DNA from: Lepidodermella squamata
Lineage: Eukaryota > Animalia > Gastrotricha
Reading direction: 5' to 3'
Assembly (NCBI GenBank): GCA_047495785.1
Contig: JBLDXI010000030.1
Location: forward strand, 620,001 to 684,000
Length of the DNA stretch: 64,000 nt
In this document: piece by piece, positions 1 to 55,462 of the stretch
How the letters are laid out: each line of letters starts with the position of its first letter
How positions within the stretch are numbered: position 1 is the stretch's first letter
Program-made: the position numbers and the translations under genes
The notes under the pieces: generated by a model
Database searches by the model: none
Told to the model about the DNA's origin: nothing
The model's input: only the letters and a program-made list of their open reading frames with translations

Positions 1-498
1 CGTCCGTGATGTGTTGAGTTGCGTCGCTGGTGTTGCGTTTGATAGATTAGAGCCTATCCCATTTTCATTAGCATAGAATAGCTTTCTAAACAATGAGTAA
101 TCATCTTCGTTATCAGATTCTTGAGTTTTATTAGGCTCTGTTGGCGTTGAGGGCGATGGACGTTTGTTAGTACTAGAGCGTCTAGCATCCAATAATTTAA
201 TGTCTTTTTGAAGGGCCTGAAACTGTGTGAATAACTCTCCAAATTTTCTCATCGTATCGCTATACGTCATGCCAGGCGGAGGATGTGATAGTTGCAAAAT
301 GTTACCCATTTCATCTGATACTGTTTGTAGTTTGGACATTTCTACAGGGTCCATGAGTGTTTGTTTAAGCATAGCGCGTTTAGTAATTGCTTCCATTGGG
401 GACTGATGGGCGTGTGATGTTGCTGTAGTTGTTGTTGGTTGTGGTTGTGTTGCTGAGGAATATGGCACAATCATGTATCGTTTTGCCGTGGTTTTCAT
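1..498 (-). CDS. Polinton hypothetical protein downstream of PW; partial, open to the window edge
   Basis: My translation from ATG 498 (MKTTAKRYMIVPYSS...) has no stop over 166 codons to base 1. Preceded by an A-rich leader like other element genes. Missed by the ORF track because the stop is outside the window. Confidence 0.75.
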   Translation of the reverse strand, partial: MKTTAKRYMIVPYSSATQPQPTTTTATSHAHQSPMEAITKRAMLKQTLMDPVEMSKLQTVSDEMGNILQLSHPPPGMTYSDTMRKFGELFTQFQALQKDIKLLDARRSSTNKRPSPSTPTEPNKTQESDNEDDYSLFRKLFYANENGIGSNLSNATPATQLNTSRT

Positions 499-510
499 GT
501 TTTTTTTTGT

Positions 511-891
511 TTACTTTCCTCGATTTACTATCGACTCAATTAATGTTGGAATAAGGCTAGTTAGGGATGAAAGTAAGATAGGAATGAATGCCCCTTGTCC
601 ACTTTGAATCAGGCGCTGTCGGCTTTGCTCGATACTATTGCCTTGGCCAACTTTTTTTATGGCGTTTCTATACTGTTTCAATCTGCGCACTGTGTTTGGT
701 GGAAGTTTCTGATTTTTCGCTAGCACATTTAACGCGATTTCCGCTATTATATGAATTACGGAGGATGGTGCAATTTGTAACAATAAACCTCGTTCTTTTT
801 TATTCTTAGCATTAATAATGAGTCGTAAAAAGTGCATCAATCGTTTGGCCTTGGATTTCCGGTGTTTATTGGTGCCGGGGTTGCGTGCCAT
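511..891 (-). CDS. Polinton PW-like small basic virion protein
   Basis: Motifs IAEIALNVL and RQRLIQSGQGAFIPILLSSL (QxGxG putative adenain site followed by an amphipathic/hydrophobic tail); located right after the ATPase. Confidence 0.75.
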   Translation of the reverse strand: MARNPGTNKHRKSKAKRLMHFLRLIINAKNKKERGLLLQIAPSSVIHIIAEIALNVLAKNQKLPPNTVRRLKQYRNAIKKVGQGNSIEQSRQRLIQSGQGAFIPILLSSLTSLIPTLIESIVNRGK

Positions 892-915
892 GAAATTCTA
901 TTGCTAGTACAGCTG

Positions 916-1692
916 CTACTCTGTCGTGGAAAGTGATTTTGCGAATGACACGTCGTTTACATACTTGGGCACGCGCTCCGTGTATGTGTCTGGTAGAAAA
1001 ATGGACCCTCCGGCAAATTCAGCTCCGATCCCGAGAAAATCACGTACCCGATAAAACTCGGGTATATTGTGACGCAAATCTAGCACCAAATACTGGTAAG
1101 GTTTACTGGTAATTTTAGTAAATGCATCAAATATTTGTCTCCAAATTGTAGGCTCGGATTTCATGAGTAGTATTTTAACTGACATCGTTTCCGATCTGTT
1201 GCGATACAAGATGAAAATGTCAGTGTTTGCCGCGATTATGGACGAATATTTTCCCCGCGGATGAACGCGTTGCTGGCTGATCATTATCGAAACGTTACAG
1301 TGGTGTTTAAAACGCGTAAAATAATCCGCAATCAATTCGCTGTCATGTGCTCGCAAAAAATTGTCCTCAATTATCATCAACGACGTGTCACTTGGTGCGA
1401 AATAATCAGCGGTCAGATCGTCGATCCCGTTCAGGAATTCGATTTTCACCCCGCGGGCTTTGTACACATCCTGAGCGAGCTTGTCATGGTAGTCGGGGGT
1501 ATTGACCCCATAGCAATAGACAATTCGATTCGGTCTTGGGACGAATATATCAGCATCTAGCAACATTTGGCGAGTGGTTGTCGATTTTCCTGAACCCGAG
1601 TTCCCGATCAACGCAATCGTGACTGGTAAGTGAATTGAACCAATTATCTCCATTTCCGCCCCTGATTGGTAGCTTGCTGACATGATTGGCAA
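916..1692 (-). CDS. Polinton FtsK/A32-like genome-packaging ATPase (probable start at ATG 1653)
   Basis: Walker A GNSGSGKST, Walker B LMIIED, plus FTRFKHHCNVSIMISQQ and KPYQYLVLDL motifs typical of Polinton ATPases. Confidence 0.93.
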   Translation of the reverse strand: MPIMSASYQSGAEMEIIGSIHLPVTIALIGNSGSGKSTTTRQMLLDADIFVPRPNRIVYCYGVNTPDYHDKLAQDVYKARGVKIEFLNGIDDLTADYFAPSDTSLMIIEDNFLRAHDSELIADYFTRFKHHCNVSIMISQQRVHPRGKYSSIIAANTDIFILYRNRSETMSVKILLMKSEPTIWRQIFDAFTKITSKPYQYLVLDLRHNIPEFYRVRDFLGIGAEFAGGSIFLPDTYTERVPKYVNDVSFAKSLSTTE

Positions 1693-2314
1693 AATTTCTT
1701 TGGATTAATTTTTTCGCTTATCAACCCTTTTCCGAATAGTTTTCGAGCGAAAGCGTGAATATGGCAATCTATAGATGTGCACGGTGCGATGTATGGCGAA
1801 AATATACTTGAAATTATATTTTTCATAGACAAATTTCTCGCTCTGTAGTATAAATAGACTAGCGAAAATTCACCACAAGTTGATGTTAACGGGGATTGCA
1901 CAGGTGCTTGATTTATTTCATAAATTCCACCGCTCCTTGATGATGTAATTTTTAAAAATCGCTCGATCACTGGATTATATTCGCGCATGTTTCGTGCCAG
2001 TGAATCAAACACCTCAGATCTTTCAGCTTCCCCTCCTACGTATACTGCAAGCCAATGTTCCTATACGTTGAAATAATAATAACAACAAACACACACAAAA
2101 AATGATTTAAAATTCAACTTTTTTTATTATTTACAGATCAACTCACTCCTGGAAGAGTACTCGGTTGCGTATTTACAATAAGCCCCGCCGGTCTCGGAAA
2201 ATTCACGCGTAGTAAAGAGTCGAGCTCATCACATGCCAACACATCATAAAACGGTAAGTTGGAAATCCCACATACATCGGACTCTAAGCAAGTATAAAGC
2301 TGAAATGTGTTCAT
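1644..2314 (-). CDS. Adenain-like cysteine maturation protease; exons 2314-2147 and 2060-1644 (86-nt intron 2146-2061), 194 aa
   Basis: Spliced product reads IVNTQPSTLPG|EHWLAVY...FDSL...QSPLTSTCGEF (His/Asp/Gln/Cys catalytic motifs). Intron is GTGAGT...TATAG, phase 0. Confidence 0.92.
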
Positions 2315-2376
2315 ATTTTACCATTCCCATCATAACACGATAATACGATATTATAATCATGCATTTTTTCCATAGA

Positions 2377-3735
2377 TTAAGAGTGCAAGTCTGCCAATAC
2401 TTGCCGGACCGAATTTACTTCAATCACCGCTGGCCCATCCATAAACAATATCAACGAGTGATTCTCGGTTAACACATCGGTAAAAATGAGATTCATCGAC
2501 AAGCTAGCAGATGTGACAGGGTTCCAACAACCCAGGGCTGCATCGTCTGGTCCCAATGCGAAGGGGAAGAATGTCCTCCCGTCTTTCATGAAGTCATCGT
2601 ACGAGATTCCGTTATTTTTCTGGTTATGCTGGAACGGAAACAGGACTTGCATCGTTTGCCAATACGCCTTTGCCGCATCTTTCGTAGCCACGGAAACATC
2701 TAGAGGCGATCCAGTCACGTGTGCTCCATCGAGCATGACACTCATTTGCCTAGACAAATCAGGTAAAATGAACATTATACTTTTTTATTATTATTCTTAC
2801 TTTAATTTTGCGCTGGTGAAGTTGTACGGGTTCAAATTGAATCTCCCAGTCATCTCTGTATCTTTCAAAATACACGCAACCAATACTCGAGGTTGACGCC
2901 CCAGCAAAATATTATTTAGCGTAAAAATGCTGCTTCCAGCCGTTAGCGTTATTGTTTTGATGAAGCTTCGGGACACCACATATCGCGCCGGGGATACAGT
3001 TAATGCTTTCTCAATACCAAGAGCAAATTCTGGTCTGACGCGAATTCTCCGCAAAATTAGACTAAGCGATTTGATGCTAAAGTGATACGTTTTTCCTGCT
3101 GGGCACATTAGAGCCCATTCATCAGACACCCTGGTAAATCTCATACTCATGCTGAGATTGGGAAGTAAACACCGCGGCTGGCACCACAATTCCAAATTTG
3201 GTTTAAAAATCATGGTAAGAGTCCGGGTTTTGCATTTTGCCTTGCGGGTTGCAAATCCGGTGTTAGTATCGCCAGTCACGTCATCAAGTTTGCCTGGAGT
3301 GTCCAGGTACATGCCTTCTAATGACATGAATGTGTCCTTGGTATCGTTGCTCAAGCTCAATAATGAGGAAATGTACGATTTGTAGCAGTACCACGGAATA
3401 CTGTCTGTGACCATGACAGAATTGACCGACATGTCAATATTTTTGAATATACTATGAGCCATGTTAGCAACGATGCCACAGTCCCAATCAGTTGCTAGCG
3501 CATCCGGGGTTTGGTTTTGAAGTTCAATCGTTACTCGAACACAGCTGCGAGACAAGTCTGTGAAATCAGTAGGCGATGCCTGAACATCGATATCAATCGG
3601 TGCGCTATCAGTTAGCGTAGATCTGGGGAAAACTTCCAATAAGTATGAACTTTCTATGCTGTGTTGAGTACTGGGGACTTCAAAATATTCAAAGCATGAC
3701 TTCAAACATTCTTGGCTTGCCGGATGGTGTTGCAT
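2377..3735 (-). CDS. Polinton double jelly-roll major capsid protein (PY); exons 3735-2801 and 2749-2377 (51-nt intron 2800-2750), 435 aa
   Basis: N-terminal ECLKSCFEYFEVPSTQHSIE, NPYNF and NNGISYDDF motifs. Removing GTAAGA...TCTAG joins the two ORFs in frame (FTSAKLK|QMSVMLDG). Confidence 0.92.
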
Positions 3736-3880
3736 TTTAGATGTTGCGTGATTACAGTATCAAAAAAATCAAAATTAATAGGAGATTTTTTGCGCCCCAC
3801 CGCCGTCTACTACGACCTAATTACATTTTTATTTGGTTTACATATAATATATCGTTCTATTTTTTTTATTGCAGCTTTCT

Positions 3881-4372
3881 TCAGCCAAACAACTGGATGT
3901 TACTACTGTTCGACTTGGAGCGTATCTTCTTCCGCCTCTTCTTGTTTCTCGGGTTCGATTTGGTTGACCTGCGAATTCTACGACCTTTGGCTCTTCTTTT
4001 TCGTTTTCGCCCTCTATTACGACCTCGGCCTAGTTGCTCAGATACATTGTGAGCTGCATCACGGGCAAATCCTCGCAGTGCAGTAACGCCGTGATTTTTC
4101 AGCGAGTCTCGAATGTTTGTACCATTTGGTTCTACGAGGTCGTTTGAAATTCCAGCGGAAGCAGTCGATAGATGGCGGAACAGGTATGGTAATAAAGGAA
4201 CCACATTGTTGCGAAAAAAATTCCCAATGTATTGCCCAACTCCTGACCCCATCTGAGGACCAGCGTAGACACTAGGATATACTATAGGGGTTCCCCGGAA
4301 CACATTCATACCTTGCCCTGTCTGAGCTCGCATCAAAAAATATGCGGCATAGTCATCAGGAGAAGCTGGCAT
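3881..4372 (-). CDS. Polinton core/PM-like protein (Arg/Lys-rich, protease-processed)
   Basis: Three QxGxG motifs (QTGQG, QMGSG, QLGRG), an amphipathic segment GQYIGNFFRNNVVPLL and a very basic C-terminus. Lies between penton and MCP. Confidence 0.78.
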   Translation of the reverse strand: MPASPDDYAAYFLMRAQTGQGMNVFRGTPIVYPSVYAGPQMGSGVGQYIGNFFRNNVVPLLPYLFRHLSTASAGISNDLVEPNGTNIRDSLKNHGVTALRGFARDAAHNVSEQLGRGRNRGRKRKRRAKGRRIRRSTKSNPRNKKRRKKIRSKSNSSNIQLFG

Positions 4373-4419
4373 TTTTTTTTATTATTTGCACTAGAGCTGA
4401 TTTGACCAAAACTAATATT

Positions 4420-5520
4420 TTACATGGGACGGGGTCTAAAATGGAGAATCATGATAGCTTTTCCATATTCAAATATCAACGCGTCGCCACCGTCATTGGT
4501 CATTTTGAATTCTAACTCTTCCAAAACTCGGACACTTACTGGGATATAAATAGGTTTCTCAAAAGTAATCGACATGAATTTCACCCTTCCCGCTTGATTA
4601 TGTGGAACGTTTATTTGTCGTAGAAGTGGGACTTTAACGTTTCCGACATTTACCCCTTCTATAACTGATAAGTACACAAACATGGACGCCAGCCCGTTAA
4701 CTAACTGGGGGCCAAACGGTAGAAAGAGATCGCCAACGGAGCCTGGATCCACACTCAGGTGAAATGTGACAAGCTCTTGTAGTTTCATTTCCTCGTCACG
4801 GCTAAGTTCAAATTTATGATGAAGTCGATGCAAAGAAGTGCCGTAGTCTCCATTTGACTCATAAACGCATTCGTCGACGATTTCGCGTGCTAGTATTTTG
4901 TTGAGGTCCTGAGACCCTGGATGGTTTGAGATTTGAGATGTTCGCAAGTGGATATACGGGTATATATGCGCAAATCGCTCAATTATACTATTTCTACCAC
5001 CGCGTGCAGACTGCCCTTCTTGCTTGAAAATTTCATGCTGAACAATTAGAAGGGCCTGAGGATTTCCCATTACGTTTGCCAAATATTTGGGTATAAAAAC
5101 TGCTAGGCGACTGTCCTCTACAGAAATCACGAAACGGTCTCGTGTATTATCGTATCGAATTTCCAACTTGCTTCGGAATTTTGAATTGATTGCACGCATC
5201 ATGTCATTGGCCAAATTGTCATTTGAGGAATAGTATGTCCCACCCACTCTAAATTGGGTGATCGCCCCACATTCGAACGGCCTTTCAGAATTTTCAACAG
5301 ATTCGGCGTATTTATGGAAATCAAGGACGAAGAATGAACATTCGCCCAAGTTCTCGTAAGTGCAGGGTCCTGTATACTGATACAACCCACATTCATATGA
5401 ATTGCTGCTGCAAAGATCGATCGGGCTCTCTAGTCTAATTTTAAAGTTCGAAGCATTGTTGAGTGGGTATTCAGTCATACACGAATTGCTCATGGCATAA
5501 AACCAGAAATCCTGAGACAT
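4420..5520 (-). CDS. Polinton minor capsid protein/penton (PX)
   Basis: N-terminal SNSCMTEYPLNNASNFKIRLESPIDL...YECGL; C-terminal MFVYLSVIEGVNVGNVKVPLLR...FEKPIYIPV...LHFR. Confidence 0.88.
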   Translation of the reverse strand: MSQDFWFYAMSNSCMTEYPLNNASNFKIRLESPIDLCSSNSYECGLYQYTGPCTYENLGECSFFVLDFHKYAESVENSERPFECGAITQFRVGGTYYSSNDNLANDMMRAINSKFRSKLEIRYDNTRDRFVISVEDSRLAVFIPKYLANVMGNPQALLIVQHEIFKQEGQSARGGRNSIIERFAHIYPYIHLRTSQISNHPGSQDLNKILAREIVDECVYESNGDYGTSLHRLHHKFELSRDEEMKLQELVTFHLSVDPGSVGDLFLPFGPQLVNGLASMFVYLSVIEGVNVGNVKVPLLRQINVPHNQAGRVKFMSITFEKPIYIPVSVRVLEELEFKMTNDGGDALIFEYGKAIMILHFRPRPM

Positions 5521-5534
5521 CGCTTTTATTTATT

Positions 5535-5723
5535 TCAACTGCTATTAGTCACTCGGCGGCTTGTGGTTAAATTGACAAAAAATGATTCGATTGACTGGTG
5601 GAAAATCCACGCAATTAAGCTAATAGTGCAAATGAAAATTATTGCTGTGTTTTGACGCTTTTCCATATGACGCCGAAAAAATGCGCTTAAATCGCTACGA
5701 CCGCTAGATGATCCGGTTTCCAT
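5535..5723 (-). CDS. Small single-pass membrane protein of the Polinton, function unknown
   Basis: 62-aa ATG ORF filling the gap between integrase and penton; one hydrophobic helix (AIIFICTISLIAWIF). Confidence 0.55.
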   Translation of the reverse strand: METGSSSGRSDLSAFFRRHMEKRQNTAIIFICTISLIAWIFHQSIESFFVNLTTSRRVTNSS

Positions 5724-5767
5724 TGCTTATACCGCGCGTATTGTACAGAATTTCTCAATATATATCA

Positions 5768-7071
5768 TTAATTATTTTTTGATTTTTCGCTTCTATATAC
5801 ATCCGGATTATCAATAATCGAAGCCAGGGGTTCCCAAGTTGCTTGATTATCCGGGTAGCCCTTCCAGAAGACTTGAACCCTTTTGACCCCATCGCGCCCT
5901 GTTTCACTCGCACCGATTCTGTCTATCAAATAAAATTCCGGAAGTGTCACACAACATAATTCGTGTGCGTAAAATTGTCCAGGTAATTTTAGGGTATAAT
6001 CACTAGTGGTGGAATCCCATTGATTTAGTTGGTACACGCATGGTCCATATTCATCCCCCTCTTTGACAGACCGAATCTTGAAAAATTCCTCGCTCCAGTA
6101 ATTATGCTTGGATCGATCAAATAAGCCGCGTTGTAGAGAAATGCGTACTATTTGTCCGGGTTTAAGCCTACTTTTCACTCTACTCCTCATATTTTCACCA
6201 TTTTTGTGGCGGCGAAATACGTTGTGAAATGCTGATAACAGCTTAGGATCCTCTTCTATTATTTCAAATTTGTTGCCGATTTTCTTTCCAGTTACGTGAT
6301 CTTTTAACGCGTAGAGTTCGGCGGGGGTAAATTTTATGGTACCGTGTTTTGTAGAGTTATACCCCTTAACTAATGATTGTAACATGTGGTGATATACCGA
6401 AGTGTTGTAGGCGACGCAATACCTTGTGAGGCGCACCCGAATTGTTTTATTAAAGGATTCCACACTAGAAGATTTGATGTGTGAATTAGTGTTATAAAAT
6501 CCAATTTTTGATTTTTTCAGGAACTGCTTAACGGCTCCCAGGAACTCAGTGCCTCTATCGAACCAACATGCCAGTGGAGGCTCTCCGGCGTCGGCTATTA
6601 TCGACTTTAGGCCAGCCAATATCGTCTTCGATTGTTTGTCCATCATAGGACGCACCCATGCGTATCGAGTGAACACGTCGATGCAACACAGCCAGTACTG
6701 AATGCCTTGATTTTCTGCTGACATGTCTCTGCGGAAAAGATTTTGTTTATCGGTCGGATTTCTAATTTTTTGTATCATTTGAGTGTTTAAAAATCGTACC
6801 TCACATCCATCAAATCAAGCGCCCAAACTTGATTTTTACCAAAAACTTCAACTTTTCGATACGATTTCCGATTGCGAACGCTTACTGGTCGATAAAGTGC
6901 ATATGCGCGTTGGTCTGATAACCATTTTCGGATTTCCTTTCTTGAGAACTTCGCATTGCCGTTGAATTTAGCTTTTACAGCTTCGTAAAATCGCTCAACG
7001 CCCCCCAAACTACCACCGTTTTCTACCTCGAAATACAAAGGACGTAGCACTTTATCTATATTCTCGACCAT
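5768..7071 (-). CDS. Retroviral-like (rve) DDE integrase with C-terminal chromodomain; exons 7071-6800 and 6728-5768 (71-nt intron 6799-6729), 410 aa
   Basis: Spliced product reads WALDLMDVR|DMSAENQGIQYWLCCIDVFTRYAW, then FDRGTEF and VESFNKT. Chromodomain VQVFWKGYPDNQATWEP. Intron is GTACGA...CCGCAG. Confidence 0.94.
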
Positions 7072-7163
7072 TTTCGCCCCTGTGATAGACTATAATATGT
7101 GTGTGATTTCTTATGTTTTTTTTTTACATAGTCGAATTTTGAGATTGAACACCCTCTATATTA

Positions 7164-7554
7164 ATGGCTTTTTGTGATGAAACAAATGCTGATGGAAGAC
7201 CTTGCACATGTATGCTAACTTTTGACGAAGTGTACATAATAGCCAAAGAGGATATGAATCCTGCGAAGTGTGATTACTGCGAACATTACGCCACATGCCA
7301 CCCTAACTCTTCAACCGACGGTTTGTGGCTTCCAGTTTGTCGCTTTTCTGTCTCACCACTTTTCTCTAATCTATGCAGATAATGAGCAAATTCGCCTGTC
7401 GATCATTCAGTTTATTCGTACATTCGATGATGCCGTGGGTGATGTGTTCATTTTATTCCGGAAACTTACAGCGCAGTGGTGCCAAGTTTACAAAATACTG
7501 GCCACTTACAACTCCAATAATGTTCAATACTTGAAAAAACACCGCCGTGAATAG
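7164..7554 (+). CDS. Polinton accessory Cys/His-rich protein; exons 7164-7320 and 7379-7554 (58-nt intron), 110 aa
   Basis: Removing GTTTGT...pyrimidine tract...ATGCAG joins two ORF-track frames in phase 1 (SSTD|DNEQIRL). N-terminus has C..CxC...CxxCxH...CH. Confidence 0.65.
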
Positions 7555-7648
7555 TTAATACTCGATCGCAATAAATTACTGTACATGATAATCAGGTTGC
7601 TTATTGTTTTTTCGCGTCGATTCGGCCCATGGTGGGTGGGAACAAGGA

Positions 7649-7850
7649 GATTCGGGTAGTTTCGGGTAATCTCAACCCATCGAGTCGATTCGAACAAAGG
7701 TACTGACTTGGTGATTCGGGTAGTATCGGGTACTACCGGGTATTATCGGGTTTTTTCGGGTATTCTCAACGGTCACAGATCGGAATATTTTGGTCGTCAC
7801 ATACTACGTTCAGGTCACAGATCGGAATATTTTGGTCGTCACATACTACT
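7649..7850. repeat. Polinton terminal region: ~10-bp-period (T)CGGGT(A) subterminal repeats and a duplicated 37-bp terminus
   Basis: GGTCACAGATCGGAATATTTTGGTCGTCACATACTAC at 7771-7807 and 7813-7849; CGGGT units at 7649-7670 and 7713-7762. Confidence 0.85.
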
Positions 7851-8360
7851 CGTGCATGAAACGTCGAATCGGTCGAAAACGTAGTGTTCCATTGTATTCG
7901 ACGGATGTAATGGATATACGACAATTTGGTCACTTAATGTGCTACCGATATTAGGCTTCTCATATGCCGTCAAATGATAAATTATTGGAGTCCAGATATC
8001 CAACGCAGGCACTGTGAAGTAGAGTGTGGCAGGATCTGCCCTCATACATTCCGTTTCTGACAATAGATCTGTGCATTTCGGTTTTTCGCATGGCAGCCCC
8101 CATGTTATGGATAGATAAAGAAGTAAAGACAGCTTTTGCTCCACGTCATCGATTCCTACAAAACGGTGGAAGCCAGCACGGATATTCACCTCAACCGGCC
8201 TGCTGCTGTTGGAAGACACTACTTGTTCCAGCAGTAGGTTTTTCGACATAACTGCTGGACAACGTTCAGAGAATTTCAACTCTAACTTGCCAGCCGCCGT
8301 TGACGCAGTTCCAAACGACGCGAGTTTTGCAAACATCAGCAAACTTAGGGGCGATGGCAT
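7851..8360 (-). pseudogene. 5' half of a Cys-loop ligand-gated ion channel gene disrupted by the Polinton insertion
   Basis: Clear paralogue of 14272-15444 up to FDRFDVSCT, the first Cys of the Cys-loop. The frame then runs into the element end (AGT AGT ATG TGA). Confidence 0.88.
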
Positions 8361-9758
8361 GATGTTTATATTATGATGCGATTCTTTTACCGATGCACAT
8401 GTGACGTAGATAAGACGTCACACTCAGAGCACGCTGGCTGACAAAAGGCGTGTTAAATTATTTGCTCATGAATATTCTAAGTGTTTTGCAGTTTGAAGAA
8501 TAAAAATGATGGGGCTCCATGCGAATTTGCTTTAAAATTTAAAATTTAAAAATTAAGGTTTACAGATTGCTGAAAGTAATGTTTTGCCGCGGTTTCCGAG
8601 ATGAATTTAGTCAACAGAAATAGCACAAGAAATATTGGGGTGGAAAATAATGGCATGATTCAACTCATTAAATTTGAGCGATGAACTTTATTCTAACTTA
8701 CGACTTCTTAGTGCCATCTACGTCCTATATTACGTCACTTGCCTAAGTATGGCCGAAATGGGTCTCTTACTCGCTCTATATGCAATGGAATATATTTTAG
8801 AGAGCTCATCTACCAAATTATCAGTAATGTGACATATCACATTTCCCGTATGCGCATATAGGTATAGGTATCGATTAGATAGAAAAACCACGTTCTCGCG
8901 CTTTTCGGGTTTTGTTTTGGCAGACAAAATGCCAGGGTTGCACTTGTTTTAACGGGCTATTCAAATACACGTGTTTGAACACATGATTAAACAATATAAT
9001 CAAAATTCCGGCGGATAGATAGCCTGCTTAATTCTGTAAAAACTATCCGCGGCCGGCGAAATAGAAAGCCACCGATCGTGTTGGAAATTGTCTGTAAAAT
9101 CGTGATTTGGTCATAAAATTTGTGCCTGAGATACCCCCTAGTTTGAGGATCCTACATCGCGCACTGGACAAAACAACCGCTTCACTATTCATAGATTTTG
9201 TATGGAAAGTACGTTCGGCTCTTAAACCTAAATCAAAAACACGGCATTAGGCATTATAATTCGAATTTCATTAACTGGAAGTAGCTGCCGATTGATTGAA
9301 TATGACAAATCAAAAATCAGCTGCTCGATCACTACGTGCGACTTGAATACCTTGACTTGAGGGAGAGCTGAACGTGAGCTCGAATAACGCAAAACATCAG
9401 AATAGCCTTCTCTATTACAGAAAAAAGTCGGGCATGCTGTTCGAGCTCAATTTTAGACTTGAACTTGAGAATCACTAAATTATAATTTTCAGTCTCAGAT
9501 GGATGTGCCAAATGGAAACACGAACCTCAGACTTGGACGCATTGAATGCGTTTCACAGCAAGCAGACGTTACTAAACGCTTTCTTGGATAATTGGCCATC
9601 TTTAATCACAACTGCCAATCATTTAGCCAAACAATATATTTGATATTTCGAACTGGACTTCATTTCAATCAAAAACATCAAAAACTCGGCATCAGGCTTT
9701 AATCCGAATTCCCTCATCAAAAGTAGTTGCCAGTATTATTGATTGAATAGGACAGACA

Positions 9759-12035
9759 TCAACTGCCCACTACGACGGACTTGAATACCCCTGTACTAGT
9801 TGCAACAGAGTAAATCAAAGCTATGCAGAACATGAAAATATTGTTAATATTCATAATTCCGCTAAACTGGAGAAGAAAGTTTGCTAGAATTCCAAATACC
9901 TGCAACGTGAAAGAAGCCATCGAAGACAGTAGCAAAGGCTTGAACCTGTTCGAATTTTCTATTTTCAATCGCTTCATAGAGTTGAATGCCTTGAAGCTTA
10001 ATATGAGACCCGAGAATGAAATGCAAATGTTAATCATAACTAAGCCGATCGAGTAATCCCCGGAATTCGGCGATTCGCAGCTTATCCGTCTCGCGTAGTG
10101 ATAAGTATCGGTATCATAGTCGTAAATGGGCTTTACATCCTCAGTGTCTTCTAGGCTTTCCAAAACAGAGTCGTGTAATATCCAGGCTAAGCTGATAGCC
10201 AAATTTAAGATTAACCAAGATACAGCAAACCAAAGTCGAGACCCCTCTTTGTATACAACTCTTGTCTCGTCAAGATTTGTCGCTGAAATCGAGTATACTT
10301 CAGAGCGAGAGTTACCTCTTCCCCATCCATGCGTTACTGTCATTGGCTCTGGGGCGGTTCTTCTCCGGTGTGATGGGAGAGACTTGCGGATATCGTAAAA
10401 AACTACTAACAAGCAGCCGTTGATTAACGAAACTCCGCTCGCTAGGAACGTGATTTGCATGCGGCAAAAATTAGTTGAGCCCTGCAGTGTAAACAACGCA
10501 GCGGATGTATTGATTAGACAGAACCCAGACGTGAATAAAGTCAAGGTAACCCGATTCTTTGAATGAGCCATGACACGGAGGGCGAGAAGAAGTTGGCAGA
10601 CTGGGATGAGGCTTGAAATGATGCATCCAACCAGAGTAACAGAAAAACCGAGTTTCCCTATTGAAACTTCAATCGATGCTGAATCCTTCGGAAACAAGAT
10701 TCGTAATCCATTCAGTTCTTGCAACGAATATGATCTGAGGTTGTCTAAATTTTCTTTGACCAGAGCAACTTGATGAGTAACTACCAGGCCCATCTTTTCA
10801 AGACTCCAATACACAACAGATTGCGGCTCGAAGTCATATTCAAGCCTCGCTGAATATCGGAATCTTCCATATCTCAAATTGATGAAGTCGAGCCGAGAAG
10901 CACTTTGATTCGCAGCTTGCATCACAGTGTTAGGATCGGTCTGGAAATCACTCAAGCTCATTTTAGATTTACTAAGAATCTCTTCGGTCCCATTCAAAAT
11001 CATCAAAGCCGTTAGAATTCGATCGTAGCAAAGAAATCTAAAGTCTGAATCTGGGGTTTTAGTCCCATTAGTGTATTTTGAGAATAGGCTCTCGAACTCT
11101 TCAAAGGAGTGGCCTAAAGCTGTTCGAGTGTTCGGAGGTTTCAGAACGTCGAACGCAAACCCGATAAAAATGCTGATTTCAAATTGAGCCAATACCATTG
11201 TCCGGTTGCACTTATCACTAATATTGAACGGCAAGTTGAAGATATCGATGTAAGTTGTTAGCTGAAAGATGAAAAGATACCGGGGCCCGGTAATACCGAA
11301 TAAGAAACATTGGCACAGAAATTTCAAAGCCGCACTAGCTTCACTGGATTCCATAGTGAAAACACGGATATCTCTAGCCTTCAACGATAGTATCAGCTCG
11401 TCGTTGAAGTCGTAGCTTCCTTCAAAAACCTGAACTTGGAAACCGTTCTTTAACGCAGCTTGGTAGAATAAATTCGCCGTGTCGTAGTTGAAAGAATTCC
11501 CCGTGTAGAAAATCATGCCGATTTTACGAATATTAGTAACATTGCTTAGAAAGTATGTCCTAGCGTAGATGGCTAGTTCCGAGGGGCATCGAATTCGGTA
11601 CATGTTAGGATAAAGAGTTCTTCTTGCAGTTTGAACCGGAGAAGTACAGGAGCCTGCGACCATAACTTGGTTCAAATGGTGAGCAGCCATTCCCATAACT
11701 CGGCAGGCTGACGAAAGGAAAGGACCCGTGAAAACAGGCGATGCATTTGGGTTATTCCTCAGGTAGTCTATGGTTTCTTTTACTGAAAATCCACCGCCTG
11801 GGCCTTCGTTGCGGAAATCGATCGTGACATGGTACTCGGGAAGTAAGTCGTTGCGTTTGTTAACGATATCAACAACCATTTCCTGAACAGCTTTGCACAT
11901 CATGTTGTCACGTGGTTCGTAACCAGTCGTCATTATAAGGGATAACACTGAGAGTTTTTTGGGCTTCATAGCCATGGCAGAGAACAACAACGAGCTGGTG
12001 AGAAGTAACCACATTACTAGACTAATCGTTCGCAT
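9759..12035 (-). CDS. Class C GPCR, GABA-B-receptor-like (Venus flytrap + 7TM), intronless
   Basis: Signal peptide; VNKRNDLLPEY, FTGPFLSSAC and YPNMYR flytrap motifs; no Cys-rich domain; about 7 hydrophobic helices at the C-terminus. Confidence 0.85.
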   Translation of the reverse strand: MRTISLVMWLLLTSSLLFSAMAMKPKKLSVLSLIMTTGYEPRDNMMCKAVQEMVVDIVNKRNDLLPEYHVTIDFRNEGPGGGFSVKETIDYLRNNPNASPVFTGPFLSSACRVMGMAAHHLNQVMVAGSCTSPVQTARRTLYPNMYRIRCPSELAIYARTYFLSNVTNIRKIGMIFYTGNSFNYDTANLFYQAALKNGFQVQVFEGSYDFNDELILSLKARDIRVFTMESSEASAALKFLCQCFLFGITGPRYLFIFQLTTYIDIFNLPFNISDKCNRTMVLAQFEISIFIGFAFDVLKPPNTRTALGHSFEEFESLFSKYTNGTKTPDSDFRFLCYDRILTALMILNGTEEILSKSKMSLSDFQTDPNTVMQAANQSASRLDFINLRYGRFRYSARLEYDFEPQSVVYWSLEKMGLVVTHQVALVKENLDNLRSYSLQELNGLRILFPKDSASIEVSIGKLGFSVTLVGCIISSLIPVCQLLLALRVMAHSKNRVTLTLFTSGFCLINTSAALFTLQGSTNFCRMQITFLASGVSLINGCLLVVFYDIRKSLPSHRRRTAPEPMTVTHGWGRGNSRSEVYSISATNLDETRVVYKEGSRLWFAVSWLILNLAISLAWILHDSVLESLEDTEDVKPIYDYDTDTYHYARRISCESPNSGDYSIGLVMINICISFSGLILSFKAFNSMKRLKIENSNRFKPLLLSSMASFTLQVFGILANFLLQFSGIMNINNIFMFCIALIYSVATSTGVFKSVVVGS

Positions 12036-12230
12036 TATCTGGACAGCTATTGAATGAAATGGACGTCATTGCAGACTTAGCACAAGATTTATAATTCTAA
12101 TTAGCTGTTTGAATTGTCACTTGTCACGCCGCATGGTCTTAAGAGGAAGAAACTTTACTACCTTAGTCTTGACTAGCTCACGACTGACGGAAAAATCGAT
12201 AGTACAGGCTGCATAAGTTTGCCGTAGTAT

Positions 12231-14271: not shown

Positions 14272-15444
14272 TCAAGATAACATGAGGGAGAAAAGAACTG
14301 CGTCAATGATCATTACAGCCATGCCTGCCACTAGAGCCACTGCCAAGTCCAGAAGGCGATGCACGGGTATAACCAGGCATTTGTGTAATTTGACAAAGCG
14401 AGATTTCATTGTCTCTGGGATGCCAGGGCTCAAACACGTGTAGGCTGTTATAAGCACTGCAACGATGAACTTAGCTGCAACCATATACACAAGATAGACG
14501 TGATCTGAAGTTGTTGGCATCATGCCAAAAATTAAGGTGAGAAATACAACGTAGGACAGCACAACTGTCACGCAAAACGCTGACTGGTCCCTGTTCACAG
14601 GTTCGACTATCAAAGAAATGACTTGAAGGAAGAAAAGCGTGATGGTTGGGATGAAAATGTTACAGACGTAGTAGCCACTTTTGCGGCGAAATCGAATTGT
14701 CATATTAATTCGATCATATCTTAACGCGACCTTGCCCTTCGCTGATACATTGCTGTTATACTCGAGTGGCGCGACAACCGACCATATATCACTATCAACG
14801 ATGAAGGTATCGCCAGACGTTGCATCGATATCAAATAATTCAAGTTGAAATGCTACTTCATTGTGGGAATCACTGGATTCGAAAACTAGCGAGCAGGCTT
14901 GTGTATCGAAGGGAAATTGGCGGTAGCTGAAATCAGTACAGGACACGACGAATCGGTCAAAAATAAAGTAACGCATTGTCTTGAATGAGTCGAACGGATA
15001 TACCCAGACTAGGTCACTGAATTTGCGACCGACATCAGGCGACTCGTAAGCAGTCAAATCATAGATTATAGGAGTCCAAATGTCCATCGTTGAAGTTGGG
15101 AGGTAAAGCTCACTAGGATTGAGTATCGAGCACTCTGCTTCGGATAGTAAATCTGTGCATTTCGGGGTTTCGCATGGCAGGCCCCAAGTCATAGTTAGAT
15201 ATGCAAGTAAAGACAGCTTTTGCTGAACGTCGTCGATTCCCATGAAACGAAAGAGGGCCAGCGATATATTTACGACGACAGGACGGCTGTTGTTCGAAAA
15301 CACGGCTTGGTCCATCGGCAGGCTTTTCGATTGAACGGCCGGGCAATATTCAGCGAATCTCGCTTCCAGCCTGCCAGCCGTTGTCATGGCAGTTCTCACC
15401 GAATCAAGCTTCAGCGCCACCAGCAGAACGAAAAGCGATTTCAT
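14272..15444 (-). CDS. Divergent Cys-loop (pentameric) ligand-gated ion channel subunit, intronless
   Basis: Signal peptide, DIWTP, Cys-loop CTDFSYRQFPFDTQAC, pre-M1 FRRKSGYYVCNIFIP, four TM helices, PTTSD M2-M3 loop. Confidence 0.92.
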   Translation of the reverse strand: MKSLFVLLVALKLDSVRTAMTTAGRLEARFAEYCPAVQSKSLPMDQAVFSNNSRPVVVNISLALFRFMGIDDVQQKLSLLAYLTMTWGLPCETPKCTDLLSEAECSILNPSELYLPTSTMDIWTPIIYDLTAYESPDVGRKFSDLVWVYPFDSFKTMRYFIFDRFVVSCTDFSYRQFPFDTQACSLVFESSDSHNEVAFQLELFDIDATSGDTFIVDSDIWSVVAPLEYNSNVSAKGKVALRYDRINMTIRFRRKSGYYVCNIFIPTITLFFLQVISLIVEPVNRDQSAFCVTVVLSYVVFLTLIFGMMPTTSDHVYLVYMVAAKFIVAVLITAYTCLSPGIPETMKSRFVKLHKCLVIPVHRLLDLAVALVAGMAVMIIDAVLFSLMLS

Positions 15445-15693
15445 GATTTTCAGATTTCCATTGTATGTGTACCCTTGTGCAAGGCCGAAGTAATTCTCTG
15501 ACTCGAATTTGTATGCAGATGAATTTCATCGATCAACTATTTATTCGTCATGTCAAATTTCCTGTGAATACGCAATCATCGGCATCGGTAGAATCGGATA
15601 TAAAAACCTAGGGACTATTAGATATATGAGCTCGAAGCTATGAGAGGCAAGAAAGATTTGTGTGCATAAGGTAAAAACACAGGTTTAGGTATA

Positions 15694-16847: not shown

Positions 16848-17188
16848 TAATCTTTGCTGATCTTTAATATTAAATATTTAATAAAGGCTGATATTTCGTA
16901 AGCTGAGTTTTAATGACTCGACTGTCGTTCTCTAAAATGTCGTTAGGCCGTTAGCTTTGCTATAGATACATTGATTTTCAGCAAAGCCCTAATGTACATT
17001 GAGCCGAAATTGCGTATTAGATTGCGTGAGCCGATACCTTATTTGTTATCAATTACGCCATTGATTTTTATATCCGGTAAAATGTCAACATGCGCCACAA
17101 TGAAGCGGGAAAAGAATTTCTTTGAATGAGAAACTGATTAAACATTTAGCTTTTTCGCGTCTTCTGGCTCCGATATGTGCGGACAATA

Positions 17189-18475
17189 ATGCTCGCAGCT
17201 CTGATCGTTCAATTACTCGTTTCGATAATACGAGCGGCTGAGTACATACCACCAGAGCGGAAACTTGCGCTGACCTTCATTGAAAGATGCAGCTTGTCTG
17301 AGAAAGCGAGGCCAGTTATCAACGCCCAGGATACTTTGGAGGTGTACAGCAGCTTCATACCCTTTCGGTTCTTAAGAATAAACGATCGAGAGCAAACGTA
17401 AATTTCCAATTTTTTACGGGATTCATTAATGCATTTCATCCGTAGTTTTTCCGTGTTCGGCGAGCTTGATATCAGTTGGAAGCATCCATGCATGACTTGG
17501 GAGGTGAATGACACGGGTATACCTCAGATAGATCTGTTCGCTGCTGAAACCTGGCGCCCAATGTTGACGCATTCAAACGGAGCTGATGATGTAGCATATT
17601 GGGGTCCTGAGAAGTAAGTTAACAACATTTTAACGATGATCCATACAATTTTTTGTTAAGCAGCGTAGCCGATAACCACGGCCTGATTTCAGTAACGAAT
17701 GATGGCACTTTTTTCCTACCCATTGTGTCAACTTTCACATCATTTTGTGCCTTGAAGTTAGTTTCCTAATTCCCGTTTAGGTGATAGATAACTCCTTTAT
17801 CGTTCTAGCCTACGGAAGTTCCCTTTTGATCAACAAGTCTGCACTATTCAGATCGAATCCTGGTTTCCTAGATCTAGGATTCGGATGTTCCTGAGAGATA
17901 ACACTTCAGATATTACTGTTATGGCGAATTTCATTACTTCAGCCGACGTTTGGCGACTTGACAGCGCCAAGGCCTCAATGGGGGTCAATATCTACAGCGG
18001 GATAGGCGACCCAGGAGGAAGTGACTTCGACAAGGCGATTTTTGAATTTCGAATGAATCGCAACCCAGCAATAGCTATTGTCAGTCTCTTCATTCCTAAT
18101 TTAGGCCTCGAAGTCCTGCTGTTAGCCTCTGGAATAATGCCGCCCAAATCCACAGATCGGCCGGCTTTTTGCGTTACTGTCGTACTTGCTTATACTGTCC
18201 TGCTGTCCCTAGTGACTCAAGCTTTGCCTTCGACCTCCGATATCTGCTACGCCTTGGTTTTCACGGCCTTTCTACTCTGTCTCGGCGTTGTTTGCGCGTT
18301 GTATACGCTGCTAGCATGCGAACTTGCTAATCGGGAAAATTTCAAAAAACGTGGAATATCATTTGGATGGTTCAAGATTTCGGTAATCAGACTTGTGGAT
18401 GTGATAGTTTTCACCGGTTTAACGATTTTTACTCTATTCGTGAACTTTGCAATTTTTATTCTAATAACTTCTTGA
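17189..18475 (+). CDS. Divergent Cys-loop ligand-gated ion channel subunit, 4 exons (about 17189-17397, 17446-17613, ~17661-17756, 17809-18475)
   Basis: Signal peptide MLAALIVQLLVSIIRA, WRP motif, spliced Cys-loop CALN|LRKFPFDQQVC, M2 DRPAFCVTVVLAY, PSTSD; ~48-52-nt GT-AG introns. Confidence 0.88.
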
Positions 18476-18687: not shown

Positions 18688-21094
18688 TTACGTGACTCTT
18701 AGATTGACGATGGTAGCGTGCATTCTTCGATGAGTTGGTTGCGGAGATTTTATGAATCCGAAGAAGATAGCTGTCACGGTTGATATTGAGTAGACCAGAA
18801 GACCACTGGCAACTAAGGTCGTGCCTTGGTGAGCTCGAGAGGGCTTATCTATTGCCAGAGCCAGTTCTCCGAGAATGACCGCTAGAGTGATGAGCAAAGC
18901 ATTCCATACAGCTATACGATAGGTCTTAACATCAAGCTTGAATCTAGCTCGAAGCCTCGAAAAGCAGGATTTCCGCATGAGAGCAGCTTGAAAGCAAGCG
19001 ATAAATAGCAATATGACCTGAATCGACACCAGCGTTGTTATCAAGTAGTAACTGTTATTTGACCAACAGGACCGAACTTCAATACTGTAGAAAGAGTCGA
19101 GTTCTGAACTGAATTCAGTTTCAGTAAAACTTGATACATAACTCATTGGCTCAACAATTTGCCATATGACGAAAATCAGCGTGCAACTGCTCACAATGAT
19201 CGATACCACTTGAATGATAGTTTTTTGAAGGGCAATCATTGCCACGTGTTTTACCCTTTCGGCCTTAGCGAGGCTGAATGAAAACCTCAACCGCTGACGT
19301 CGACTGATGTAGAAATGCAAACTCATAAAGCGTATCATAGTAGCCATTCGAATGTAAATCGCTGAATTCACCATTGACAATCCAACCACAGTGAAAAAAT
19401 CCCGAATGTTGCAGTAAATTTGAGGGAAATACACCGGGCCGAGCATAATGACATAAACTGAAACATTCAGGAGCAAACAGCCGAGGAGAACAGCGAATCC
19501 ACTGCAAGTGTTGAAGTAACGAGATCCAGCCGTTTTGAGTCTGCCCCTGATAACAGCAATAGCAACGATTCCAATTATGATTTCGATGAAAAATATGAAA
19601 GTAGCCAGAACGCACAGTACATAGATCGCTGTAAGGTCAATAGAACCTTGGATGCTAACAACCGCTGATAGATCCTTCGGTGCTTTGCCATTCAAAGTTG
19701 CCCAATTTACGGGGGACATTAATTCAATGGTTTGGGTGGATATATTTTTAAATGTAGCTCGATTTCCGGTGAAGTTCACGCGAAAAATGAAATCGCTACT
19801 CGACAGTCTTTTTCCAGTTCTCTGAACCAAGAAAGATGTCCCAGTCATTAGCAAAGATTTCTTGTTGAATGATCTCCAATATTCGAAACGACTACCCATC
19901 TCTGCGAAGGTTTGACTAACAATGGCTGAATCTGGATTGTCGCTACGGAAATCTCGGAGACTGAGATTGCGTGGCTTCAGCGCTGCTTCTGTAGCGTTAA
20001 GAAGGAAGAGACCGCTGAGTAATTGACGATTCAACGCAGCTAATTTAGTCGTGTCGAATGGACATTTTTCTATCATTAGGGCTTTAGCTTGTCCGGATTT
20101 GCTGTAGAGATACTCGCTGTCTACTACCGCTAAGACGGCAGGGGCATATAGATGAAATAATGGATCGTTTGTCCAATGGGTGAGAAACAAAGATATTCTG
20201 ATTTGCTGGTATTGAATGGACAGGTCGCAGGCAGAAGCTGTTAAATCAACTCTGTAGCCAACGCAAGCTGAATTCGGAAAAAACAAGACGTATTCCGGGG
20301 CTCGAATCCCTGCTGCGTAGCTGTCACAATAAATCCTCGGGCAATCATCAGGTAGAAAAGTCCCTGATAGAACGAGAATCCTAGCTAGGCCAAGCTTCTT
20401 CACTGCTAAGAATTCATTGTATGACACGCCAACCTCAGCTTGAACGACTTCTATGCCATTCGCCTCGAAAATCGTTGCATTCCGAATGAGAACATCAGCA
20501 GATCTAAAATCCTCGGTATCAGTGGACAGCAACGCGATTTGGCGCCACTTTCCAATGTGAAGGATCGTATTTATAGTGGCATGCTTGATAAAAGTGTTGA
20601 TAGGATCGTCATTCCAGACGTCTTGTGGCCACGTCCACCAGAAACTACCGAATTGGAACTGGACTTGAGACAGTGATAATGACGCTCTTATCGCCTGAAA
20701 TATACGCTGATATCTAACGTCTTCGGTTTTCAGGGAAAGCTGGGGTCCCATGAAGAATGGAGAGAGCGAAGTGTTTTCCCGAATTTCTGACTCAATAGGC
20801 TTATAGAAGCTCACAATGTCCTGGGAGAGGAAAGCAAGTTCCGTGTCGAAATATTGAAGCTGCAAGCGGTGATTTGGCAGAATTCTTAGGTTCGAATTTA
20901 TGCTGTCCACTAAAAATGCCAAGGCCACTTTCGAACACCGTTGCTCTTCTCCTGCGTCTGAGTTGGCAGAAGAACTTCAAAACTTCAAGACCAGCCGTGA
21001 AGACTGGCACAATTATTGAATGATATTTCGAGAGGCAGCTATCCAGGCTGTTCACGAGCGCTAACAAGAAAACTGACCAGCCAGTGAGCAGCAT
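18688..21094 (-). CDS. Class C GPCR (Venus flytrap + 7TM) with an apparent frameshift near 20975; possible pseudogene or sequence error
   Basis: Signal peptide MLLTGWSVFLLALV (ATG 21094) is in a different frame from INSNLRILPNHRL...FMGP...7TM. No intron evident. TTGAAGTT is tandemly repeated at the break. Confidence 0.75.
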
Positions 21095-36731: not shown

Positions 36732-37421
36732 TCTTGAAGTATGTAATGGGAAAATTTGAGCTCAGCAACTTGTATGGCGCATGGGCCCACAATTAGCCGT
36801 TTAATCTGTAAATTTGCATAAAGATAGCATTGGTGAACTCTTTCAAAGGTCACACTCATAAGAGATGGGTGGAGCGTATGCGACAAATATCTTGATAAAT
36901 TCGCAATCCCAACCTGAACTGTAGAGAGCAAGTAAGGTAAGGACCAGCGAAATTTTGAGCAACCTCGAATTAATTACGAATAATGTTTACGATTTAATTG
37001 GAATAAACCTCTTATTGAATGTTAAAAATCATTCAACCCTAGTCCTAAACCATAACCCAGAGAGCAAAGTAGGACAGCCGAACTGGTTAGGATAAGGAAA
37101 ATCGACATAAGGGTCCCCCCTTTGGTCTTAGACTGAGTTCACCTTGCGGACCGATTGATCCCTACCATCCCTAGCGGTACTTCGCATAACCTCCAATCCT
37201 AATCCTATCCCTGAATCATTTTCAGATAATCTTAAGCTGGAACACTCCTAGTAAGAAAAAGTGGACACTGAGCAACTATTAGGATTTGAAATTCCTAAGT
37301 CCTAATTACGACCAGAAATAATAATTCGCGAATAAATTTCTCAAAACAATCAAAACCGTTGTAAACAAAGGCTATGCATTGCTTTATTCGTGAAGTGAAA
37401 ATATTATGTCAATTGTCGTGT

Positions 37422-42084: not shown

Positions 42085-42644
42085 TGCGTGCTTTCACTAT
42101 AATTTAAATAAAAAACCAAGGAGGAGAATCATCCGAATGGAACAATCCTCCTCGAATTATGAAATAGAAATTCATTTTCGTCTTATTTTCTATGATAACA
42201 ATTCAAAGCTACAATGGAGACTTCGGTTGATCATGAAATGAGTTGGATCATTTCAAGATCAGATGTAAAATGTAAAAGAAAAGTTGAAGCGACCACGTCT
42301 CATTTCGTTTCGAATTGTTTGTAAGATGTGCAAACTACGCCACATTCTACAAGTAATCTTTCCTACCCATGTCAATCTGCGCTAATTTTCGCGATCCTGT
42401 TGTTTTCTATGGATTTGGTGCTAGATGCTAATTGATTAGCACAAAGCTATATAATATAATAGTTGCTTTAATCTGGAATCGACACTATGATCGTTATAAA
42501 TAAACGCACGGCCGATCGATCTACCATATTTAGACATTTCGGAAGTTTGTTTTGCATTGAGCTGAAAGGCAAACGAAATGTACAGATCATTGCTCAAACA
42601 TCAGATCGAACATAATATATACTTCACCTTTTGGTTTTCACACC

Positions 42645-55195: not shown

Positions 55196-55462
55196 CTAGG
55201 GCGTCGGAGCCAAAATGGTAACGGCGTAGCATTTAGCACTGCAACGGCCAAAAGCGGAGTTGCAGGCGAGAATAGCAGGCGGAGTAGCGGATGACGCCAC
55301 AACTGTTCCAAAAATTGCACCAGCAGCGCCGTAGCAAGCCACAACTAAAAAGGCACAACCAGCTTGACAGATGCCGTACAAAGCAGGGCCGCCAAGAACA
55401 GGCGTGGTCAATTGCAAAGCGATTGCGAGAGCGATGACCAAAATAATGTTGTGTTGAGTCAT
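55196..55462 (-). CDS. Small secreted 6-Cys hydrophobic peptide, copy 1
   Basis: Signal peptide plus GPALYGICQAGC...ACY...ACNSAFGRCSAKC...APTP; intronless; close paralogue at 61351. Confidence 0.88.
   Translation of the reverse strand: MTQHNIILVIALAIALQLTTPVLGGPALYGICQAGCAFLVVACYGAAGAIFGTVVASSATPPAILACNSAFGRCSAKCYAVTILAPTP

Follow-up and report, generated by a model that had tools for sequence, protein, structure and literature searches.

Gene content, boundaries and insertion site

The window, that is, the whole stretch of DNA analysed, comprises 64,000 nucleotides (positions 620,001-684,000) of Lepidodermella squamata contig JBLDXI010000030.1. Its first 7.85 kb are the right part of a Maverick/Polinton (adintovirus-like) element. 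Coordinates below are those of the window, and the genes of the element and its right border are as follows.

1-498, minus strand: open reading frame (ORF) past the PW-like gene, 166 stop-free codons, open to the left edge, putatively PZ-like by position
511-891, minus strand: small conserved Maverick gene adjoining the ATPase gene, presumably PW-like (tblastn matches in 13 loci)
916-1653, minus strand: packaging ATPase of FtsK/A32 type, single ORF (tblastn E-values to 6e-22)
1644-2060, minus strand: maturation protease exon 2, with His, Asp, Gln and Cys present (homologue alignment)
2147-2314, minus strand: maturation protease exon 1, abutting exon 2 in homologues L077 and L011
2377-2749, minus strand: major capsid protein exon 2 (homologue alignment)
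2801-3735, minus strand: major capsid protein (double jelly-roll) exon 1 (Atlas and structure model)
3881-4372, minus strand: basic gene, putatively core-protein-like by position and composition (matches in 3 loci)
4420-5520, minus strand: likely minor capsid (penton) gene, single ORF, putative by position (homologues between the integrase and capsid genes in many loci)
5535-5723, minus strand: small ORF with a hydrophobic stretch (ORF list)
5768-6728, minus strand: rve integrase with chromodomain, exon 2 (Pfam)
6800-7071, minus strand: integrase exon 1, with the first catalytic Asp (homologue alignment)
7725-7850, no strand assigned: terminal inverted repeat on the right side, 126 nt, ending in ACTACT
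7851-8408, minus strand: Cys-loop ligand-gated ion-channel gene of the host, 5' half, interrupted by the insertion (paralogue match)

The Polinton/adintovirus identity proposed in the first-pass annotation is borne out, the rve integrase, packaging ATPase, protease, double jelly-roll capsid and terminal inverted repeat all having been found, and the gene order is that of Maverick locus L011. Integrase exon 2 is matched by the Pfam models rve (7.7e-6, under the gathering score) and Chromo (5.4e-7) and has 7288 relatives; 36 of 39 conserved columns of the integrase are kept. The protease matches 12 of 17 conserved columns, including the His, Asp, Gln and Cys, the packaging ATPase 19 of 38 and the capsid 8 of 17. 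Word-based protein searches returned no match for the capsid or the protease, Pfam names neither, and a PDB sequence search and a single-protein viral scan also gave no match. When folded from its single sequence, the capsid reached a pLDDT of only 30. However, it scores 0.97 against PF21738 clusters (Atlas), and a structure model with a pLDDT of 72 (below 50 over the read-through insert) matches virophage and PBCV-1 capsids, the best match being the Sputnik capsid (E 1.5e-15). The divergence of the ATPase and capsid would fit either a divergent lineage or slow decay. The left-edge ORF has no homologue among the Maverick loci compared and occupies the same place as its counterpart in L011; for the ORF at 5535-5723, neither Pfam nor the Maverick loci hold a homologue.

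Three sequencing runs (X1, X2 and X3) matched, none of them recorded as RNA, and X3 shares next to no words with the window. Run X1, which may be the source sample, contains one copy of the element at 80% identity or more in its contigs. Depth over 7725-7807 is 293 in X1 contigs, compared with 145 for the element body, and this doubling points to a left copy of the terminal repeat outside the window. The two repeats are near-identical, since both merge into one contig in X1. Of the two junctions that bear on the 6-bp target-site duplication expected of a Maverick, the right lies at 7850/7851, as set by paralogous empty sites, and pieces of host repeat begin at 7851 in contig matches; the left is outside the window. 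The interrupted half of the channel gene is 56% identical to residues 12-197 of a whole paralogue at 14275-15525, so that, judged by sequence comparison, the Maverick is inserted in a host ion-channel gene. The earlier description of the element as intact holds for the nine genes in view, across which no further stop or frameshift occurs, whereas pPolB and the left end lie beyond the window. An X1 contig extends about 1940 nt to the left of the window, which is shorter than the 1146- to 1477-codon ORFs of relatives. The terminal repeat, the ion-channel insertion and the spliced opposite-strand RNA described below are additions to the first-pass annotation.

Inserts in the integrase, capsid and protease genes

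Three core genes of the element are each divided by one short insert.

2061-2146, minus strand: likely protease intron, 86 nt, GTGAGT..TAG, between codons (homologue gap)
2750-2800, minus strand: likely major capsid intron, 51 nt, GTAAGA..TAG (homologue gap)
6729-6799, minus strand: likely integrase intron, 71 nt, GTACGA..CAG (homologue gap)

Host-type introns had been claimed for four genes, including a small accessory gene. All four spans were located, with GT..AG ends and lengths of 86, 51, 71 and 58 nt, but the claim is likely to hold for the integrase, capsid and protease and not for the 58-nt accessory segment. Each core insert contains the in-frame stops ascribed to it, the integrase insert does lie five codons past the first catalytic Asp, and the protease insert immediately precedes Glu-His-Trp, as described. 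The core inserts are AT-rich, with GC contents of 0.22, 0.22 and 0.31 against 0.38-0.56 in the 45-nt flanks. The X1 DNA contig carries all inserts without a differing letter.

Comparison with homologues places the inserts precisely. For the integrase, with the break marked X, the 9 positions around it are filled by exactly 9 residues in 92 of 97 homologues. In the capsid, 25 of 38 rows have exactly 13 residues over 13 positions, the remaining 13 rows having no cover there, and the alignment shows a 17-column gap in 15 of 15 homologues. For the protease, 22 of 28 rows fit a between-codon break exactly, four are one residue shorter and two are partial. Intact homologues used as queries recover the insert lengths (71 nt, 17 codons and 86 nt) among the matches listed. 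At these lengths, GT..AG ends are expected by chance at 0.2-0.4% of positions, or 3-5% if a 6-nt slide is allowed; on the latter basis, the chance of three such fits is approximately 5e-5. Because of their GT..AG ends, their stops and the exact gap relative to intron-free homologues, the three inserts are likely spliceosomal introns, putatively of U2 type. Host introns of similar size, as noted previously, are also predicted here: three such candidates in the window measure 47-50 nt, with donors GTAAAA, GTTTGT and GTAAGT.

Among the loci compared, which are distant (about 30% identity), any split of the gene is found in 0 of 93 for the integrase, 0 of 31 for the protease and 2 of 38 for the capsid, the capsid loci having been picked via unbroken integrase motifs. 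Both split capsid loci are decayed, and their breaks lie at sites other than that of the capsid insert. Sense junctions of the three core inserts were not found in any contig of runs X1 and X2. Two contig ends in X2, at 2750 and 6778, were considered as hidden sense junctions and rejected, as their positions do not fit.

Probable spliced RNA from the opposite strand

The RNA evidence consists of contigs of one run from one study (X2), whose RNA status is a guess backed by the splice joints alone. This run, from a different study than X1, includes portions of each of the four inserts, at 99+% identity. On the strand that does not encode the core genes, it shows four GT-AG joints, none of which occurs in the X1 DNA contig.

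1626-2136, plus strand: antisense RNA intron 1, 511 nt, skipping protease exon 2 (X2 joint, depth 11.6)
2254-2375, plus strand: antisense RNA intron 2, 122 nt, skipping the protease start (X2 joint, depth 11.6)
2763-3874, plus strand: antisense RNA intron 3, 1112 nt, skipping capsid exon 1 (X2 joint, depth 15.7)
4184-6520, plus strand: antisense RNA intron 4, 2337 nt, skipping the greater part of integrase exon 2 and the penton gene (X2 joint, depth 20.3)
7164-7382, plus strand: 72-codon Cys/His-rich accessory ORF, complete when unspliced (ORF list)
7321-7378, plus strand: proposed fourth intron, GT..AG, 58 nt, doubtful (bridged unspliced by X2 contig 16)
7570-7575, plus strand: AATAAA, likely to serve the plus-strand RNA as poly(A) signal (the only intergenic plus-strand AATAAA)

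The four joints point to an RNA of five exons that has no long frame. Canonical in form and seen in a probable RNA run, they are direct evidence of processing of the element's RNA by the host spliceosome. Two of the eight antisense splice sites fall within core inserts. The protease insert holds an AATAAA (2128) and, on the other strand, an acceptor of the antisense RNA (2136); in the capsid insert, likewise, an AATAAA stands at 2789 and an antisense donor at 2763 on the opposite strand. Cover by X2 is slight or absent over the penton gene, protease exon 2 and the greater part of both capsid exon 1 and integrase exon 2, a pattern that carries no weight on expression. One X2 contig stops at 7598, a weak hint of a poly(A) site after 7570-7575.

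The proposed accessory intron fares poorly. It has a GC content of 0.43 and no homologue, and the first frame is complete without its removal. Its excision is not seen in X2 contig 16, which spans 7205-7598 without a gap at a depth of 20; the strand of this contig is probably that of the accessory ORF, and contigs drop rare forms. The fourth insert is probably not a regularly used intron. The accessory ORF itself has no family or homologue, its best Atlas score (0.88) being a lead at most.

It is conceivable, though doubtful, that the plus-strand RNA is an mRNA and has no regulatory role, the mRNA being either of the accessory gene, with a long leader, or of a 162-codon frame crossing the third joint. 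The RNA does cross the 72-codon ORF and appears to end past an AATAAA, and its longest open stretch is 170 codons. However, that stretch is the reverse of capsid exon 2, many starts and stops lie upstream, and the accessory ORF belongs to no family.

Interpretation and alternative explanations

The explanation held with considerable confidence is a single-copy Maverick whose integrase, capsid and protease genes each carry a likely true spliceosomal intron, and whose opposite strand is spliced in a probable RNA run. If the three inserts are introns, as is likely, the core proteins would be made only by way of the host splicing machinery. The introns would have been gained after the lineage split from intron-free Mavericks, would be tolerated on account of the element's nuclear transcription, and would be removed constitutively once the core genes are on. 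The plus-strand RNA would be a single polyadenylated transcript of five exons, probably non-coding, that reads through from the left arm, on the strand where L011 and other relatives have a long ORF, and ends at the poly(A) site ahead of the right repeat. Its splice sites may be drawn from the T-rich faces of A-rich spacers and introns, and the RNA may help to keep the core genes quiet.

A regulated switch appears unlikely. It would involve intron retention that depends on tissue or stage, or else cleavage at the AATAAA of the capsid and protease introns, gating integration and virion making with the aid of antisense pairing over splice sites. All three core introns contain stops, the two AATAAA lie in an A-rich setting like that of signals after three other genes, and the one in the protease intron is the first signal past the capsid stop. 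Furthermore, two of eight antisense splice sites fall within the sense introns, which total 208 nt (P 0.026 under a uniform distribution). However, stops and AATAAA are expected in AT-rich introns, and the uniform null is too easy because T-rich tracts attract acceptors. The five host intron candidates contain no AATAAA, and they are informative solely in that respect. In the third-intron control of the Drosophila P-element, a stop-bearing intron in a transposon enzyme gene is retained tissue-specifically, giving a repressor. The stop-bearing intron is common to both systems, whereas regulated retention is a feature of the P-element and only an analogy here. In a two-strand version of the switch, which we also regard as unlikely, quiet-state antisense RNA from the polymerase arm would use sites inside the capsid and protease introns, whose stops and poly(A) signals would curtail sense expression, while the active state would splice the same introns in sense. 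In that case the introns would not be passengers; they would serve a latent animal virus as control elements with a dual use.

It is improbable that the inserts are introners, that is, copies of an intron-generating transposon that landed after integration, as in the dinoflagellate Mavericks described in the available part of PMC11957031. Introners form multi-copy families of near-identical introns with repeats at their ends. A 33-nt likeness links the protease and capsid inserts (a score reached by 10 of 500 shuffles), and the protease insert has a 4-nt repeat overlapping its two ends, but the likeness is an A/T-rich tract, five of six insert pairs show nothing, the insert lengths differ and no terminal repeats were seen in them. 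Least probable of all is a dead copy with inactivating, never-spliced inserts and cryptically spliced antisense read-through as its sole RNA, since the joints on the opposite strand only, the single copy and the divergent capsid and ATPase are set against three independent inserts with exact GT..AG ends (~5e-5), nine genes in view without further lesion and near-identical terminal repeats.

Comparison with known systems and significance

The Maverick described here shares with animal Mavericks and adintoviruses an rve integrase, a packaging ATPase, an adenain-type protease, a double jelly-roll capsid and a terminal inverted repeat. It differs from those described, as far as the available text of the sources goes, in its three split core genes, intronless core genes being a described trait outside the definition, and in the spliced opposite-strand RNA that crosses the core module. 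That core genes are usually single ORFs, as stated earlier, agrees with the accessible portions of the literature, which ascribe "intronless ORFs" to intact vertebrate Mavericks and call nematode core genes "intronless", introns being confined to cargo genes (PMC8097293, PMC8502044, bioRxiv 10.1101/2022.07.12.499685). The searched main-text passages of 10.1101/2023.08.22.554363, PMC11296320, PMC11244446 and 10.64898/2026.07.28.741278 mention no core-gene introns; supplements may hold intron annotations. The Maverick type itself is known; the split core genes depart from the descriptions cited, and the probable spliced RNA opposite them is new here.

According to the excerpts available, Maverick surveys count elements as intact when their ORFs are intronless, and they rely on prokaryotic gene callers, the stated reason being that such viruses lack introns. 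Consequently, intron-bearing elements would be filed as decayed and missed, which would bias counts of active elements and host ranges. ORF callers would indeed split the integrase, capsid and protease genes, as predicted. Introns in the capsid and protease genes would make the expression of virion genes dependent on the nucleus and on host splicing rules, a constraint that could limit horizontal transfer. The opposite-strand joints offer a testable handle on how integrated Mavericks stay quiet.

Dinoflagellate Maverick-like elements with introners (PMC11957031, PMC12166617) resemble the present case in having intron-type sequences inside full-length elements. In the parts of these papers at hand, however, introners are multi-copy transposon families, not presented as spliced core-gene introns, whereas the Lepidodermella inserts are single and mutually unrelated, and they interrupt core genes of an animal element that are open apart from them. 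Adenovirus, a related DNA virus, uses host splicing and is transcribed from both strands, according to the available text of PMC7851563. In the giant virus Faustovirus (PMC6247863, in part), the double jelly-roll capsid gene is reported to be in pieces and to undergo complex splicing, whereas the Lepidodermella capsid gene has one short, likely GT-AG intron and belongs to an integrated element.

Element Architecture and Boundaries

The stretch from 1 to 7850 of the window is the right arm of a Maverick/Polinton element, whose genes are arranged as follows:

1-7850, minus strand: integrase, small hydrophobic ORF, likely penton gene, basic protein, major capsid, protease, packaging ATPase, two more ORFs

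The same order is found in another Maverick locus (L011), where long ORFs on the opposite strand come next. At E values up to 0.001, 7288 relatives of the integrase were found, the best of them with 43% identity. The major capsid model (insert read through with X, folded with 15 homologues; pLDDT 72) matches the double jelly-roll capsids of virophage and PBCV-1. The term "intact" applies to the genes in view only, because the polymerase and the left end lie beyond the window.

A single 9692-nt contig of the DNA run X1 spans 1-7754 at a depth of 145 with zero mismatched letters. The window carries one extra homopolymer base relative to the contigs at 500 (both runs) and at 7607 (X1), both intergenic. 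The X1 depth of 293 at 7725-7807 is expected of a terminal repeat with two copies; within it, two exact 37-nt repeats 42 nt apart lie at 7771-7849. The last letters of the element, up to 7850, are ACTACT, and host-repeat pieces follow directly. At this junction, the host repeat is a Cys-loop ion-channel gene broken at residue 197 of its intact paralogue; 7851-9000 is multi-copy in X1.

One contig of the second run, X2, continues past the end of the repeat at 7850 into flanking sequence that matches neither side expected of this site, which hints at a second insertion. This hint is weak because the repeat is partly shared with another family: an X1 contig with two differences has 7746-7787 in common, pointing to a likely second family of elements with a similar end.

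Likely Introns in the Core Genes

The first-pass annotation had claimed four introns:

2061-2146, minus strand: protease insert, 86 nt
2750-2800, minus strand: major capsid insert, 51 nt
6729-6799, minus strand: integrase insert, 71 nt
7321-7378, plus strand: insert in the 72-codon Cys/His-rich accessory ORF at 7164-7382, 58 nt

The three core inserts hold up as likely introns by their ends and their register with homologues; the fourth is doubtful, since an X2 contig, probably of that strand, runs through it. Each core insert starts with GT, ends with AG, is AT-rich and contains an in-frame stop. With X placed at the break, the flanking pieces are in register with 92 of 97 intron-free integrase homologues, in 22 of 28 protease rows and in all 25 capsid rows covering the site (13 more do not reach it). 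Read in frame, the capsid insert lies opposite a 17-column gap in 15/15 homologues and is the lowest-confidence inner region of the structure model. Intact homologues used as queries recover the insert sizes: 71 nt for the integrase, 17 codons for the capsid and 86 nt for the protease. GT..AG ends are expected by chance in 0.2-0.4% of placements, or 3-5% when a 6-nt slide is allowed, and at about 5e-5 for all three. One such pair is possible at the protease site, one at the integrase site and two at the capsid site, with lengths of 51 and 60 nt; the 51-nt pair is the one that fits. Three of the five host intron candidates in the window are clean, frame-keeping predictions of 47-50 nt.

No sense-strand junction of the three core introns was found in any contig of X1 or X2. 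Sense transcripts of the core genes would probably be spliced constitutively whenever made.

The fourth insert has a plausible acceptor and a plausible donor, the latter identical over six letters to that of one host intron candidate. It is not AT-rich, and the 72-codon frame is already complete without splicing. No homologue of the accessory ORF was found among the loci searched. X2 contig 16 crosses the insert ungapped at a depth of 20. Minor splicing is possible, as contigs lose rare forms.

The proportion of conserved columns matched is 36/39 in the integrase, 12/17 in the protease (catalytic set included), 8/17 in the capsid and 19/38 in the ATPase. By its predicted proteins, the lineage is divergent; slow decay of the element is also possible. 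Core introns common to distant Maverick loci were not found among 93 integrase, 31 protease and 38 capsid loci, so the introns look lineage-specific. Any split at all occurs in 0/93, 0/31 and 2/38 of these loci, respectively, and both split capsid loci are decayed elsewhere. P0001, an unbroken 401-residue integrase with 43% identity, is far nearer than every other match and has similar residues at the intron site; it comes from a lone 3.4-kb contig, which fits intronless DNA or spliced RNA.

Probable Spliced RNA from the Opposite Strand

Host splicing acts on opposite-strand RNA of the element. X2 comes from a different study, and its RNA status is a tool's guess; 22 of its contigs were placed on 600-7900, all with at least 99% identity. 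Four plus-strand GT..AG joints, running opposite to the core genes, skip 1626-2136, 2254-2375, 2763-3874 and 4184-6520. All have canonical donors and T-rich acceptors, and none occurs in the X1 DNA contig. The implied exons, if one molecule, are approximately 1156-1625, 2137-2253, 2376-2762, 3875-4183 and 6521-7598, with no open stretch longer than 170 codons. Contig 16 is probably part of this RNA, given its overlap, equal depth and end 23 nt past AATAAA. The RNA is probably read-through that starts in the left arm and ends at a poly(A) site ahead of the right repeat.

One plus-strand acceptor falls within the protease intron and one donor within the capsid intron; two other acceptors fall in intergenic spacers. 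Thus, 2/8 antisense splice sites lie in sense introns, which occupy 3% of the span (P 0.026 under a uniform null, weakened by T-richness). AATAAA signals are present within two of the introns. Silencing of the core genes by the plus-strand RNA, or truncation of sense RNA by the intronic signals, is possible but of low probability. Nothing in these data supports the comparison with P-element splicing control.

X2 also contains fold-back (opposite-strand) joints at 3095-3188 and 4852-5013 (depth 2-3), probably library artefacts, and an 1109-nt contig (depth 33) covering 1-740 plus 370 nt leftward of the window.

Comparison with Published Elements

In the literature searched, subscription papers, repeat databases and supplements apart, nothing was found on core genes of animal Mavericks that carry spliceosomal introns, nor on a spliced antisense RNA that crosses such genes. 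Among exceptions to intronless genes, the faustovirus capsid gene is reportedly spliced. ORFs of intact vertebrate Mavericks are intronless (PMC8097293), nematode Mavericks have introns in cargo and none in core genes (10.1101/2022.07.12.499685), a large protist survey presumes the absence of introns (PMC10120064), and endogenous mavirus-like elements are without them (PMC8547959). Further exceptions are cryptophyte elements, in which a small gene carries group I introns (PMC12220804), and dinoflagellate elements, which contain introners (PMC11957031; PMC12166617). Adenovirus splices on both strands, rarely inside coding parts (PMC7851563).

Host Neighbourhood

Genes beside the element (ion channels, class C GPCR) mark the host as an animal. 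At 9759-12065, 14272-15525 and 18688-20976 lie genes of the Cys-loop channel and class C GPCR-like types that have no introns, next to intron-bearing paralogues at 17150-18475 and 42561-43825. ORFs at 34950-36761 resemble, by eye, a MACPF-domain gene, and two near-identical ORFs for small secreted Cys-rich peptides are located at 55196-55537 and 61351-61659.
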